Source of the DNA: an uncultured Ectothiorhodospiraceae bacterium | GTDB taxonomy: Bacteria; Pseudomonadota; Gammaproteobacteria; S012-40 | Assembly (NCBI GenBank): GCA_945787715.1 | Contig: CALZJE010000003.1 | Coordinates: 6,088-70,087, forward strand | Reading direction: 5' to 3' | Length of the DNA stretch: 64,000 bases | Shown here: one piece after another, positions 22,308 to 30,085 of the stretch | How positions within the stretch are numbered: position 1 is the stretch's first letter | Layout: each line of letters opens with the position of its first letter | The notes under the pieces: generated by a model | What the model saw: only the letters and a program-made list of their open reading frames with translations | The model's database searches: none | What the model was told of the DNA's origin: nothing | Translations under genes and position numbers: made by a program

Positions 22308-22836
22308 CACTAGCTCCTGGCTATCTCCACTAACCGGTGAACTTGTACAGCAATCAAACCAATTCCTTGCACTCCAATCTCATACTCAACGGATCTTTTA
22401 AGATTTATCTTATCGGTTCCATTCCCGTATTAAACTTAGAAAAAAGTAGATTCATGAAATATACTCTGAGGGCTGTAACCCAACCCTTGTTTCGCCTAGC
22501 GATATGAAAAGCAATACTTTGTGTTTTTTTGATAGCCAGCTGCCTTTTCTAGGATAAGCCTAGAAAAATCAGTTGATCCGTGATTTAGCGCACAACCACT
22601 TGATTCACTTGGCAATATGAAAAGTATTTGAATCACCAACCTGGTGATCATAAATATTTTCATTACGCCAATCAAACCGCACACTTGCATGCTAATTTCG
22701 CATCCAACAGATCTTTCTAGGTTAAACGTTTTTAGCGCGAAGTTTCCTTCGCATCAATTTACTTCATTATTCAAAAATACGAATCAATCTTCGCTTCGAA
22801 AACATTTAAGTCATTGTTTTATATATGTATTAATCT

Positions 22837-22852
22837 TGGCATTCATTCTGCT
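22837..22852 (+). promoter_or_regulatory. Sigma-54 (-24/-12) promoter of the 22.9-28.6 kb operon
   Basis: TGGCAT-TCATT-CTGCT (consensus TGGCAC-N5-TTGCW) with GG-N10-GC spacing, 56 nt upstream of the ATG at 22908, which follows an AAGGAG RBS. Confidence 0.65.
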
Positions 22853-22907
22853 CCTATGCAAGAGATTAGTTTGATGTGATATTCAACCACGAATAAAGGA
22901 GAACAAC

Positions 22908-23627
22908 ATGCATGATTTAGATCAGACCCAACTCGATTATAGCCGTGCAGAGTTTGATGATGACGAGTTTGAGTTAGAAGGGGAGTTCGAAAATGATATG
23001 GCTGTGTCAGGTGCTGATGAATATGAGGATGAGGATGAGTTTGAAAGTGAATATGAGTTCGAATCCAACTTTGATGGAAACAGTCCTTTTAGTGAAGCAG
23101 AGGAAATGGAGCTTGCTGCGGAATTAATGGAAATTGCAGACGATGGGGAATTGGAATATTTTCTAGGTAGGCTGATTAAACGCGGCGCTCGACGGGTTGG
23201 TCGTAGGCTACGTAAACGTGTAGGTACACGGTTGAGAAAGGGGTTAAAAAGACTTGCTAAACGCGGTTTGAGATTCGCAGGTGGAGCTGTTGGTGGTGCG
23301 TTAGGTGGTCCTGTTGGAGCCGTGGTAGGACGAGCTGCGGGTCGTGGATTGGGAAAAGTGTTTGGACTTGAATTAGAAGGTATGAGTCTGGAAGACCAAG
23401 AGTTTGAAGCAGCGCGTCAATTTGTTCGGCTTGCAGGTGATGCTACCTCTACTGCAACAGCAATTCCCTCTTCTGTTAATGAAGAAGTTGTTGCTCACAA
23501 GGCGCTGAAAAGATCAGTGGTAAAATTTGCACCGGGACTCGCAGGTAAAACCAGACGCTCTGTTCGTGGAGAAAAATCTGGACGCTGGGTTCGTAAAGGT
23601 TCTAGCATCATTCTAATGGGTGTTTGA
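22908..23627 (+). CDS. Hypothetical protein with a strongly acidic N-terminal half and an Arg/Lys-rich amphipathic glycine-zipper C-terminal half
   Basis: Residues ~1-90 are extremely acidic (DEFELEGEFEND…EYEDEDEFESEYEFESNF). Then comes RLIKRGARRVGRRLRKRVGTRLRKGLKRLAKRGLRFAGGAVGGALGGPVGAVVGRAAGRGLG, cationic with a GxxxG zipper. No signal peptide. Confidence 0.6.
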   Translation: MHDLDQTQLDYSRAEFDDDEFELEGEFENDMAVSGADEYEDEDEFESEYEFESNFDGNSPFSEAEEMELAAELMEIADDGELEYFLGRLIKRGARRVGRRLRKRVGTRLRKGLKRLAKRGLRFAGGAVGGALGGPVGAVVGRAAGRGLGKVFGLELEGMSLEDQEFEAARQFVRLAGDATSTATAIPSSVNEEVVAHKALKRSVVKFAPGLAGKTRRSVRGEKSGRWVRKGSSIILMGV

Positions 23628-27694: not shown

Positions 27695-27730
27695 ATCGAA
27701 AAACCATTAAATATAATCATTGAAGGAAAA

Positions 27731-28645
27731 TTGGTGAGAGATATGAGGTCTTATGAAGAACTAAGTAGAGTTTCCCATGAAAATGGCAAAGATAAAGAGT
27801 TTTATTATAAGTCGAAGGTTAGACCGGTTTCTAATTCTATGGGTGATTTTAGTCAACAGGAAATTGTTGACGATTTTGACGATAGAAAAAGACTTGGCAG
27901 TATCAAAGATACACCTTATAGGTGGATATGCATGCTGGATTTGCACACAAAAAGTGGATTATTTGGTGGGACTGGAGTACTCATTTCCCCCAGACACATT
28001 CTTACGGCTGGGCATAACCTAGATGGTTGTAATAAAGTAGTAGTGGTGCCTGGAATTAATGGTCGCTTCAAGCCATTTGGAAGTTACGAATCTACAACGA
28101 TGATTGCCCACGATAAATGGAAAAAACATAGAGACGATAATTTTGATATTGGCATGATAAAACTTTCCAAACCGGTTGGGAATCAAAGGTTTAATTCAAT
28201 AAAGGGAAATGTTCTGGGTCATTGGGGACATTCTGCTTTCGGAATGGGTACGAGAATTATACCATTTGTGCAGAGCAATCAATTAAACAAAAAAGCAAAT
28301 ATTGCTGGTTATCCAAGTGATAAAGGATTTACGCAGCTTTGGTGGGATGCGGGTAAAATTGTCAATACCGCGCCTGCCAAAGCATCAGGAGCAATCTATT
28401 ACACTATGGATACATGTGGTGCTCAAAGTGGAAGTCCAGTTTGGTTAAGAAGTAAAAGTTCAGGAGCAAGATTTTTAATTGCTATACATAGTGGTCCATG
28501 TTTATTAGATGGCTCAGATTGCAAAGAATTATCTGGAAAGCTTTGTCCCGGTAGTAGTTTACGTAAACCACACTCTTCTAATATGGGGGTATTTTTAACA
28601 GCGGGACTAATTAAGACGATTAGAAGTTGGATTCGCTCTATGTAA
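27731..28645 (+). CDS. Trypsin-fold serine protease, S1B (V8 / glutamyl-endopeptidase-like)
   Basis: Catalytic triad contexts are LTAGHNL (His), DIGMIKL (Asp) and GAQSGSPVW (Ser; compare the V8 protease GNSGSPV). There is an N-terminal ~60-aa pro-region and no signal peptide. Confidence 0.65.
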   Translation: MVRDMRSYEELSRVSHENGKDKEFYYKSKVRPVSNSMGDFSQQEIVDDFDDRKRLGSIKDTPYRWICMLDLHTKSGLFGGTGVLISPRHILTAGHNLDGCNKVVVVPGINGRFKPFGSYESTTMIAHDKWKKHRDDNFDIGMIKLSKPVGNQRFNSIKGNVLGHWGHSAFGMGTRIIPFVQSNQLNKKANIAGYPSDKGFTQLWWDAGKIVNTAPAKASGAIYYTMDTCGAQSGSPVWLRSKSSGARFLIAIHSGPCLLDGSDCKELSGKLCPGSSLRKPHSSNMGVFLTAGLIKTIRSWIRSM

Positions 28646-28735
28646 TCGCTATTAGAAATAATACCAAACAAATTTGTTCAACGTTATAAGTATTAAAGGT
28701 TTCGATAACTAACAAGTAAGTGTATTAATGACAGT

Positions 28736-30085
28736 TTATGAATGATTTTCTTGTTGCTTGCGCAACTGTAGCGCTCGCGGCGTAATTTTTAATTGCTTTG
28801 CAATCTTCGCGGTAGAGCCATTATGTTCAGCCATAGCAACATCGATAGCAACATCGGCGGCAGCACTACTAATTTCTTTTAAGCCCACGCCCAGTGAGAG
28901 TGCTTTACGAACAGCGGCTTCAAGATCTCCACGGCGCCAGTCACTCGTTTCTCTTGTGATGTTTTGAAATTCATCGTGGGGTATATCACCGATCGTATAT
29001 TGGCCGTCGCAAACATGACGGCCTCGCATGCGTAAGCAAAGCTGTCGAAGATCACGAATATTACCAGGATAAGCACGATTAATGAGATGGTGCTGTACGG
29101 CTGAGTCGAGTTCTGGATTTATATCATTTTGATGACGGAGGAAATGTTTAGCTAACGATAGAATGTCTTCCTTACGTTGTGAAAGTGATGGCAGCGTAAC
29201 GGTCCAATCTGCGAGACGGTAATAAAGATCACGGCGAAAACGCCCTGCTTCAATTTCTTCTAATAAATTTCGATTTGTAGCGCAGACTAGTCTGAAATCG
29301 GTGTCATGCCATGTGTTGCCACCGACTCGTTTGTAACGTTTTTCTTGAAAAACGCGTAGCAGTTGCACTTGAAGATCCAATGGCAACTCGCCGACTTCGT
29401 CTAGAAATAAGACACCACCGTCGGCCCGCGAAAATGCTCCTTCACGTTGACTACCTGCTCCGGTAAAAGCACCGCGCTCGTGACCAAAAAATTCACTGCC
29501 AGATAGGCTTGGGACAATGGTGGCACAATCTACTATGCTAAGTTCCTGCTGACTACGCAGAGGATCTACGGAATGAATAACTTTTGCAGCGAGTTCTTTT
29601 CCTGTTCCCGTTTCACCGTTAATTAAAACTGCATAATCACTAAATCTCGCGGCTTCAACAATTTGCCTTAAGGCCATTAGCCAAGGTATGCTGTGGCCAA
29701 TGACGATATCTTGTATTTCTGGGGAATTAGTGATTTTATTTACTCTCTCCCAACGACGAAGACGTACTGCAATATGGTCAGCTGTTTTACCTTCGTTGTC
29801 CCATAAGACGACGTCACTCGCGCCAGCTTCAATCAAACGATATACATCGTTACTATTTAGGTAGTCTGGGTTTGTGGTTACTGCGATAACGCGCTGTTGG
29901 GTTCTACAAGAGAATTTAGAAATACAGCTATATACATTGTCATCGGCATGATCGAATACGATAATCGCGGCTTTCGCATTATCTTTTGTATCGTCAATAC
30001 AAAAAATCACGCCTCGATTAATGAGGATTTGATGGATCGAATCGCGATTCACTACACCCAAGCAATTTAGGACTGTCCGTGTCAT
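28736..30085 (-). CDS. Sigma-54-dependent transcriptional activator (bEBP) with an atypical N-terminal receiver-like domain
   Basis: AAA+ domain with GETGTGKE Walker A and the GAFTGA sigma-54 contact motif, plus a C-terminal HTH. The N-terminal ~120 aa are receiver-like but lack the usual acidic pocket. Convergent with the upstream operon. Confidence 0.8.
   Translation of the reverse strand: MTRTVLNCLGVVNRDSIHQILINRGVIFCIDDTKDNAKAAIIVFDHADDNVYSCISKFSCRTQQRVIAVTTNPDYLNSNDVYRLIEAGASDVVLWDNEGKTADHIAVRLRRWERVNKITNSPEIQDIVIGHSIPWLMALRQIVEAARFSDYAVLINGETGTGKELAAKVIHSVDPLRSQQELSIVDCATIVPSLSGSEFFGHERGAFTGAGSQREGAFSRADGGVLFLDEVGELPLDLQVQLLRVFQEKRYKRVGGNTWHDTDFRLVCATNRNLLEEIEAGRFRRDLYYRLADWTVTLPSLSQRKEDILSLAKHFLRHQNDINPELDSAVQHHLINRAYPGNIRDLRQLCLRMRGRHVCDGQYTIGDIPHDEFQNITRETSDWRRGDLEAAVRKALSLGVGLKEISSAAADVAIDVAMAEHNGSTAKIAKQLKITPRALQLRKQQENHS

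Follow-up and report, generated by a model that had tools for sequence, protein, structure and literature searches.

The DNA considered here is a stretch of 64,000 nucleotides (hereafter the window; positions 6,088 to 70,087 of contig CALZJE010000003.1, assembly GCA_945787715.1) from an uncultured Ectothiorhodospiraceae bacterium, and our subject is a gene cassette that lies in it between glnA, ntrB and ntrC on the upstream flank and genes for a SpoU/TrmL-type methylase, a VWA protein and gpsA on the other. An original prediction, made from the sequence alone, had proposed at this point five co-directional, tightly spaced genes (22908-28645) that would be driven by a sigma-54 promoter, with a convergent gene for their own activator and core genes on both flanks. 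All six open reading frames are present in this arrangement, and the flanking core genes are confirmed. The genes of the cassette (p1 to p6) and its predicted control elements are the following:

22738-22751, no strand assigned: CGAAGTTTCCTTCG, candidate distal upstream activator site, the core of a perfect 16-bp palindrome
22780-22793, no strand assigned: CGAATCAATCTTCG, candidate proximal upstream activator site, about 45 nucleotides before the GG of the -24 element
22837-22851, forward strand: TGGCATTCATTCTGC, predicted sigma-54 promoter of the form TGGCAT-N5-CTGC (GG-N10-GC), 57 nucleotides before the p1 ATG
22896-22901, forward strand: AAGGAG, ribosome-binding site of p1 as read from the sequence, 6 nucleotides before its ATG
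22908-23627, forward strand: p1, 239 amino acids
23624-24946, forward strand: p2, 440 amino acids, TTG start
24958-26826, forward strand: p3, 622 amino acids
26864-27694, forward strand: p4, 276 amino acids, N-acetylmuramoyl-L-alanine amidase of the Amidase_2 (AmpD/PGRP) type, an accessory gene
27731-28645, forward strand: p5, 304 amino acids, serine protease resembling glutamyl endopeptidases (S1B/V8 type), the last operon gene in the subtype to which the window belongs
28736-30085, reverse strand: p6, 449 amino acids, sigma-54 enhancer-binding protein, convergent to p1-p5

In the list of open reading frames for the window, successive genes from p1 to p5 are spaced by -4, 11, 37 and 36 nucleotides, the first value reflecting an overlap of 4 nucleotides between the TTG start of p2 and the stop of p1. 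Such short gaps, together with the overlap, fit a single operon. A protein sourced from NCBI and 100% identical to p2 has 437 amino acids, which would fit a start three codons downstream. By the same list, the intervals that separate p3, p4, p5 and p6 are too short for an immunity gene. As anticipated, none of the five products of the operon shows a signal-peptide-like hydrophobic N-terminus, the maximum Kyte-Doolittle value over 11 residues being at most 1.85, versus 2.55 and 3.05 in two neighbouring proteins that served as controls (the VWA protein and a DUF4124-like protein). Nor is there a transmembrane-grade segment in p1-p5 (no 19-residue window above 1.5).

The -24/-12 element upstream of p1 had been put forward as a near-consensus sigma-54 promoter. 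It has two mismatches to TGGCAC-N5-TTGC, with the GG-N10-GC spacing kept, and considered as a pattern alone it does not rise above chance (44 matches in the window versus 48.6 expected). Its validation comes instead from comparison across loci, for which we assembled 80 loci encoding p3 relatives from a one-genome-per-species collection, plus others. An equivalent element precedes the first p1 gene in 63 of 77 loci, mostly at some 50-110 nucleotides from the estimated p1 start, and many of these loci, Actinomycetota included, display a perfect TGGCAC-N5-TTGCA promoter. A search for inverted repeats shared by the regions upstream of the promoters returned one motif, CGAA-N6-TTCG. In 55 of 56 loci this motif lies within the 260 nucleotides that precede the -24/-12 element, compared with a background of 0.035 per 260 bp. 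Two copies, 41-42 bp apart, are present in most loci, located about 46 and 87, or about 57 and 99, nucleotides before the -24 element. The two palindromes of the window are 42 bp apart (four helical turns), the distal one being embedded in the perfect palindrome GCGAAG-N4-CTTCGC at 22737-22752. In all likelihood, the cognate activator binds at these palindromes. The roughly 430 nucleotides between the ntrC stop and the palindromes also hold three repeats, namely two 26-nucleotide direct repeats (22486-22511 and 22599-22624, 113 nucleotides apart), a 17-nucleotide inverted repeat (22537-22575) and the perfect 7-3-7 palindrome ATCACCAACCTGGTGAT (22632-22648), none of which recurs in other loci. 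The latter palindrome and the direct repeats were considered as activator sites and rejected in favour of the CGAA-N6-TTCG pair, because this is the sole motif recurring across loci.

The activator itself consists of a receiver-like N-terminal domain, followed by an AAA+ domain with the GAFTGA motif and a Fis-type helix-turn-helix (Sigma54_activat at 3e-56, AAA lid and HTH_8 in Pfam). A GAFTGA-type motif is present in 48 of 50 activator homologues, the remaining two being fragments, and its substituted variants include GAFTNA, GAFTSA, GSFTGA and GAYTGA. The N-terminal 120 residues of p6 make up a conserved domain that has no Response_reg match in Pfam and no conserved phospho-acceptor Asp, the Asp on the candidate strand being replaced in several of 18 aligned sequences; a kinase match is likewise missing from the window cluster and from the related loci with precomputed Pfam tables. 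On these three counts, p6 does not conform to a two-component response regulator of the NtrC type. Matches resembling p6 share the locus with p3 in 63 of the 82 loci compared, and are missing mostly where the contig is short. Upstream of the activator gene, a non-coding, AT-rich stretch of 546 bp (30086-30631, 31-32% GC), with no Rfam match, separates its start from trmL and presumably contains its own promoter. Directly after trmL comes the VWA-domain protein (31102-32304, reverse strand, 400 amino acids), which has a lipoprotein-like signal peptide and is unrelated to the cassette.

Taken as a whole, the regulatory architecture read from these sequences, with an activator, paired palindromes, a sigma-54 promoter and a coupled operon, is well supported. 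The proposal of a sigma-54-driven unit with its own activator thus gains strong support from the promoter and palindrome pair conserved across phyla, from the GAFTGA activator and from the cluster-borne rpoN genes of Actinomycetota described below. The window also holds a second GG-N10-GC site, TGGCATATGTAATGC (17423-17437), which lies 60 nucleotides before the glnA start, fits the consensus as well as the operon promoter and is probably the NtrC-dependent sigma-54 promoter of glnA. The presence of NtrC and of this site suggests that the organism possesses sigma-54; a tblastn search of the window with two actinobacterial rpoN proteins gave no match, although these queries are possibly too distant.

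The first product of the operon had been described as an acidic/cationic glycine-zipper protein, and its composition bears this out. The successive segments of p1 carry net charges of -34 (residues 1-86), +18 (residues 87-124) and +3, and residues 125-154 are 40% Gly. In p1, an invariant MHDLD.T N-terminus leads into an acidic segment rich in E, D, F and Y, then into a polycationic amphipathic segment and the glycine zipper, and finally into the motif LELEG.S.EDQEFE.AR.FVR and a C-terminal GRW.RRG..I.L.G; a further motif of the protein is EEMELAAELL..ELDQFLG. Among 93 homologues, taken as independent, the acidic charge (-13 to -43) tracks the basic charge (+6 to +26) with r = -0.81. The predicted HEXXH motif of p2 is HEVGH at residues 193-197, with H193, E194 and H197 invariant in 36 homologues, and E233 and an Arg-rich loop at 151-181 are invariant as well. 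In p3, a variable Ig-like N-terminal domain (approximately residues 1-117), of the Ig/PKD/CarboxypepD_reg type, precedes a highly conserved, all-helical domain (approximately 145-620) with more than 60 invariant residues. Across phyla, p1, p2 and p3 retain 35-55% identity.

None of these three proteins could be assigned to a family. Neither Pfam nor NCBIfam, PADLOC or PHROGs provided a match for p1-p3, and a family scan of all 36 and 40 alignment members (E <= 1) returned scattered noise only. Searched with the profiles of p2 and p3, PDB sequences gave nothing at E <= 1, and with p1 just one low-complexity match. Two of the three core proteins were modelled, with no solved-structure match: the model of p2 is confident and has no detectable relative (fold searches led to generic helix bundles only, and Foldseek to none), while for p3 only the Ig-like N-domain was recognised. 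The profile searches suggested for the five proteins recognise the families of p4 and p5 and leave p1-p3 without one, and the fold searches with p2 and p3 were otherwise uninformative. No described family or system accommodates the p1-p3 core, as had been claimed: a search for an annotated family, or for a known lysis or secretion cassette, in which it could be placed, found none in these databases, and no description of the cassette was found in the literature searched, with most subscription journals outside its coverage.

By way of correction to the original prediction, the cassette is not a one-off island. Loci of this family occur in at least 580 species genomes belonging to about ten phyla, those kept for comparison stemming from Pseudomonadota, Actinomycetota, Acidobacteriota, Bacteroidota, Planctomycetota, Verrucomicrobiota, Chloroflexota, Myxococcota, Nitrospirota (Thermodesulfovibrionales), Methylomirabilota and Clostridia. 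A word-index protein search detected at least 4,451 clusters for p3 and at least 5,431 for p2 (E <= 0.001; clusters at 90% identity), typically 45-55% identical to the window proteins and none of them bearing an informative name or, over the conserved part, a Pfam domain. For p1, 577 relatives were detected, and p3 matches 974 clusters at E <= 0.001 (506 at E <= 1e-30) among 1.84 billion cluster representatives. In several cases the cassette resides on megaplasmids (pBPHY01 of Paraburkholderia phymatum STM815, Ensifer adhaerens, Rhizobium), and it has no relatives among 50,697 phage records or 2.9 million viral contigs (IMG/VR).

By tblastn, p1, p2 and p3 are found together in nearly every locus, and the activator lies close by in those whose contig is of sufficient length. 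We designated as complete the 66 loci with p1, p2, p3 and the activator, and recorded the genes that accompany them. The most frequent are Amidohydro_2 (57/66), a class I/II aminotransferase-like gene resembling alpha-oxoamine synthases (43/66) and PG_binding_1 (23/66), followed by patatin and M20 peptidase (18/66 each), rpoN (13/66), trypsin-like protease (11/66), Amidase_2 (10/66), OmpA-like (8/66) and M74 (6/66); in single loci there are also combinations of PG_binding_1 with DUF2272 or VanY, of hemopexin with Amidase_2, or of OmpA with an M10-like metalloprotease. Between p3 and the activator (loci L002-L088), Amidohydro_2 is the last operon gene in most loci and about 60% identical between phyla, and the aminotransferase-like protein has a conserved Lys in a SLAKGLG motif. 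Envelope-directed accessory genes were identified by BLAST in 35 of the complete loci. The accessory proteins read in other loci lack a signal peptide, and their N-termini are often acidic and aromatic-rich, like that of p1. Judged from this gene content, the conserved unit is p1-p2-p3 plus the activator, and the amidase and protease are interchangeable accessory genes.

The window lacks the Amidohydro_2, aminotransferase-like and M20 genes. It represents a reduced subtype, common to the loci L089 (with a 78% identical core) and L001 (Pelagibius, 57%), that does without these three seemingly metabolic genes and has the V8-like protease as its final gene. Close relatives, 78% identical in their core, can still differ in their accessory genes. 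The neighbourhood search that had been suggested does show co-occurrence of the acidic/basic protein with an amidase or a protease in other loci, with the enzymes as accessory genes, and in one locus a single open reading frame (L033:9964-11820), equivalent to p4 plus p5, fuses the cluster-specific Amidase_2 to a trypsin-like protease. The p1 module itself is subject to rearrangement. It occurs in one or two copies, forms of about 400 amino acids being tandem duplicates (P0244, P0246, P0257, P0296), and in Nitrosomonas a PG_binding_1 protein with an acidic N-terminus includes a complete p1-like module in its C-terminal half (L072:12810-14753); the same arrangement was detected, by tblastn only, in Ensifer (L088:12586-14173).

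The enzymes of the window conform to their initial description. The p4 product matches Amidase_2 (4e-12) in Pfam and an endolysin PHROG (7e-12), carries the AmpD-type His...His-N10-Asp pattern, as read from its sequence, and belongs to a subfamily that is 44-60% identical in clusters of other phyla. The p5 product matches Trypsin (2e-9), and its V8-like label holds since the nine best PDB matches are all glutamyl (V8-type) endopeptidases; its homologues are also the last gene in L089 and L001.

A further result of the comparison concerns Actinomycetota. Every actinomycetotal locus among the 66 complete ones also encodes a sigma-54 homologue near the cluster, and the rpoN-like tblastn matches are distributed over 13 loci, 12 of them from Actinomycetota and one from Chloroflexia. 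These comprise cluster-borne genes at L031:5481-6929, L037:5821-7008 and L039:6987-8309, and further loci with rpoN (L005, L006, L007, L009, L019, L029, L032, L034, L045 and L063). Three actinomycetotal RpoN proteins were scanned, and all show Sigma54_CBD and Sigma54_DBD above Pfam thresholds, with the activator-interacting domain below threshold; they are encoded beside the activator and end in an RpoN-box-like sequence. The loci that carry rpoN also have perfect TGGCAC-N5-TTGCA promoters and palindromes. Published surveys report that Actinobacteria lack the sigma-54 system (PMC3162934), and a 2025 analysis states that the phylum "effectively lacks a functional RpoN", denying bona fide status to the few hits in actinobacteria (PMC12316311). 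The occurrence of cluster-borne rpoN in Rhodococcus, Nocardiopsis, Kibdelosporangium and Rhizocola challenges this view, and the cassette suggests why orphan actinomycete rpoN genes exist. From these sequences, the cassette appears to bring along a complete transcription system of its own into hosts that lack one, and this is the strongest argument for sigma-54 gating being intrinsic to its function.

Regarding its origin at this site, the cassette is accessory and patchily distributed, and its GC content (0.427) differs from that of the rest of the window (0.384). The notion of an insertion is upheld to that extent, but the GC content at third codon positions (GC3) of the six genes (0.28-0.35) is similar to that of the flanking core genes (0.28-0.32), no tRNA, Rfam match or flanking direct repeat is found at the cassette, and none of the open reading frames listed for 17000-33000 is integrase-like. 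With host-like GC3 and no tRNA, Rfam element or flanking direct repeats, a recent insertion is not indicated. A phage origin was rejected, given the housekeeping flanks, the lack of PHROG matches for p1-p3 and the lack of relatives in phage records and viral contigs. Phage-type integrase or transposase genes do lie beside the cassette in three other loci (L084:18414-19583; L085:1710-2705; L002:1-447 and 3220-3630), which hints that there, unlike in the window, it moves on islands. A second assembly of the same organism (GCA_945786995.1) includes a contig of 7,983 bp, the only other one covering this junction, that is 100% identical to 14815-22797 of the window. Its end at 22797 falls inside the promoter region, past the proximal palindrome and short of the -24 element. 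The assembly may have broken here because strains vary at this boundary, but this end proves nothing.

The reading that we consider most likely, with a probability of roughly 40% and on the basis of sequence, is that the cassette constitutes a module for breaching the cell envelope, in which p1 would be a charge-masked, membrane-active protein unmasked by proteolysis. In the regulatory part of this proposal, which the comparison across loci supports, p6 would bind the two CGAA-N6-TTCG palindromes just upstream of the sigma-54 promoter and, on sensing a signal via its atypical receiver-like N-terminal domain, would open an otherwise silent promoter, leading to the transcription of p1-p5 as one translationally coupled operon. 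Promoters of the sigma-54 type are silent without an activator, a property that would suit lethal cargo. The polycationic amphipathic segment and the glycine zipper of p1 would be masked by its own acidic N-terminal segment until proteolysis exposes them, the candidate proteases being the universal HEXXH protein p2 (if it is a peptidase) and, here, p5, which with a specificity like that of Glu-specific enzymes could cut the Glu-rich pro-segment. The damaged inner membrane would then allow p4 and p5, devoid of signal peptides, to reach the peptidoglycan; in other loci VanY, M74, patatin phospholipase or OmpA-like proteins take their place. The p3 protein would be needed in every locus, and its variable Ig-like N-domain suggests the binding of an envelope or target structure. 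The most likely outcome would be lysis of the producing cell, with altruistic death on infection or stress, or the release of lytic enzymes onto neighbours, as possible purposes. Besides the charge pattern of p1, points in favour of the proposal are the invariant HEXXH of p2, the glutamyl endopeptidase relatives of p5, the envelope-directed accessory genes, the lack of signal peptides and transmembrane segments, the fusions of amidase to protease and of p1 to PG_binding_1, and the lack of space in the window for an immunity gene. Both roles suggested at the outset (regulated autolysis and a protease-activated membrane-active toxin) remain the leading readings.

Several observations weigh against this proposal. 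The charge correlation in p1 is uncorrected for relatedness among the homologues, and p1 lacks a canonical transmembrane segment, its 19-residue hydropathy maximum being 1.36, in the glycine zipper; it is therefore not a classical holin. The HEXXH of p2 is a motif only, and its confident model fits no known metalloprotease fold. For toxin or defence genes, the 45-55% identity that p2 and p3 maintain across phyla is unusually high. A recognisable wall or lipid hydrolase is missing in about half of the complete loci, and the commonest extra genes (Amidohydro_2, aminotransferase-like and M20) look metabolic and are left unexplained by lysis. Finally, 14 of the best 80 loci come from Hymenobacter, with the same gene order and several with a common upstream neighbour, a synteny that fits a physiological function better than suicide or a weapon.

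Some of the same evidence can be accommodated by other explanations. The cassette might be an antibacterial weapon, in which p1 and variable wall and lipid hydrolases would form a bacteriolytic cocktail that kills neighbouring cells after its release, whether from a few lysing producers or along an export route through p1-p3 that has escaped recognition. The outer membrane of the target would be permeabilised by the cationic part of p1, and the variable p3 domain would bind the target. The accessory set without signal peptides (amidase, VanY, M74, patatin phospholipase and proteases) does resemble the effectors of contact-dependent weapons, its turnover between relatives with a 78% identical core is suggestive, an N-domain like that of p3 is typical of surface-exposed or target-binding proteins, and the PG_binding_1-p1 module looks like a natural hydrolase-polycation fusion. 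Against this, no space is left in the window for an immunity gene next to the amidase or the protease, the cluster is devoid of an ATPase, a channel or a known secretion component, half of the loci have no recognisable hydrolase and conservation as strong as that of p2 and p3 speaks against an arms race. We regard a weapon as unlikely, if the least unlikely of the alternatives.

We deem scarcely less plausible a non-lethal programme of envelope remodelling or stress response, with p1 acting as a PspA-like membrane binder, p2, p3 and the Amidohydro_2, aminotransferase-like and M20 enzymes modifying or recycling wall peptides or lipids, and p4 acting as a cytoplasmic AmpD on recycled muropeptides. 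This reading is favoured by the commonest extra genes, by the stable and syntenic locus of Hymenobacter, by the slow evolution of p2 and p3 and by the host-like GC3; cytoplasmic AmpD likewise combines an Amidase_2 domain and a His/His/Asp pattern with the lack of a signal peptide, and a comparative analysis has proposed sigma-54 as a controller of the bacterial exterior (PMC3162934). Nevertheless, PG_binding_1, OmpA-like, patatin and M74 act outside the cytoplasm, yet the proteins read in this set have no export signal; the subtype of the window keeps p1-p3 without any of the three metabolic genes, and a polycation masked by an acidic segment and followed by a glycine zipper is not a known design for a repair protein. 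Far less probable is the maturation of a ribosomally synthesized and post-translationally modified peptide (RiPP), whereby p2 would remove the acidic leader of p1, and p3 and accessory enzymes would convert the remainder into a secreted glycine-rich bacteriocin. The leader-like acidic part and Gly-rich core of p1, its occurrence in one or two copies and in tandem modules, and the HEXXH of p2 could be interpreted along these lines. On the other hand, p1 is conserved along all of its 240 residues, with invariant N- and C-termini, unlike the hypervariable cores of RiPPs, and both a transporter and a known modification enzyme are missing. NCBIfam models include RiPP precursor and maturase families, and give nothing for p1-p3.

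Returning to the envelope-breaching proposal, its broader form, by which the three relative-less core proteins would make up a new machine for breaching envelopes or releasing effectors under a private sigma-54 lock, and the cassette would be a main reason for the presence of sigma-54 in Actinomycetota, is one to which we grant chances just short of even. Proteins that maintain 35-55% identity across phyla with no family model, solved relative or mention in the literature searched represent a rare amount of unexplained biology. The regulatory circuit can be read from sequence in terms of binding site, promoter and activator, and an activator deprived of its N-terminal domain is expected to turn on the operon. 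Should the lytic reading be true, the cassette would provide a new route to programmed lysis or to the release of bacteriolytic enzymes, and would supply natural fusions of polycations with wall hydrolases.

Comparison with known systems helps to delimit what is distinctive in the cassette. The AAA+ and helix-turn-helix part of p6 aligns to the PADLOC model RtcR_PspF2 (4e-82, its best PADLOC model), in a manner reminiscent of the RtcR-RtcBA system. Unlike in RtcR, the alignment is limited to residues 122-440, CARF is unmatched and rtcA and rtcB are absent; the NCBIfam RtcR score is 261, versus a cut-off of 650. With a receiver-like N-domain, a score below cut-off and no rtcA or rtcB, p6 was ruled out as an RtcR-type CARF activator. 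The core proteins match no defence-system model in PADLOC either: p1-p4 are unmatched and p6 is matched over its generic AAA+/HTH region only; p5 gives weak protease-domain matches (LmuA, 3e-06).

Amidases, peptidases and phospholipases without signal peptides that are swapped between relatives are likewise found among the effectors of type VI secretion systems (T6SS) and extracellular contractile injection systems, and some T6SS clusters also use a sigma-54 activator (VasH). In contrast to these systems, immunity genes would find no space between p3 and p6 in the window, and no sheath, tube, baseplate or membrane-complex matches were obtained in its cluster or in seven related loci with precomputed Pfam tables. 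The glycine zipper of p1 invites a comparison with the CdzC/CdzD bacteriocins of Caulobacter and with glycine-zipper pore-forming effectors, in which we presume it to be the membrane-damaging element, although the cassette has neither a type I exporter nor a recognisable immunity gene, and p1 is much larger and adds acidic and cationic segments. With the Psp response (PspF, sigma-54, PspA), the cassette shares a sigma-54 activator, a small operon and a first product that is, in the case of p1, predicted to be a membrane-associating helical protein, and the AAA+ core of p6 scores well against PspF-type models (NCBIfam, PADLOC). It departs from Psp in that p6 has an N-terminal regulatory domain that PspF lacks, in that p1 has no PspA match and in the co-expression of hydrolases.

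Further parallels are those with lysis and cell-death modules. As predicted, the usual partners of such enzymes are missing, with no holin-type transmembrane segment, spanin, phage context or T6SS/contractile component recognised. Like phage holin-endolysin cassettes and the type 10 secretion system, the cassette combines a small protein, here putatively membrane-directed, with a peptidoglycan hydrolase without signal peptide, so that a breach of the wall might be expected, and p4 matches endolysin PHROGs and has an N-terminus that is not hydrophobic. Unlike in phage lysis cassettes, p1 has no transmembrane domains, nothing corresponds to p2 and p3, the two largest and best conserved proteins, and control is exerted by sigma-54 and an activator. 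As for bacterial gasdermin-protease operons, the cassette has no gasdermin match in Pfam or PADLOC, p1 is of the acidic/cationic/glycine-zipper type with a masking that would be electrostatic, and its cleavage is a proposal. What the two would have in common is the logic of the arrangement, by which a putatively autoinhibited membrane attacker is encoded beside one or more proteases and would be freed by cleavage.

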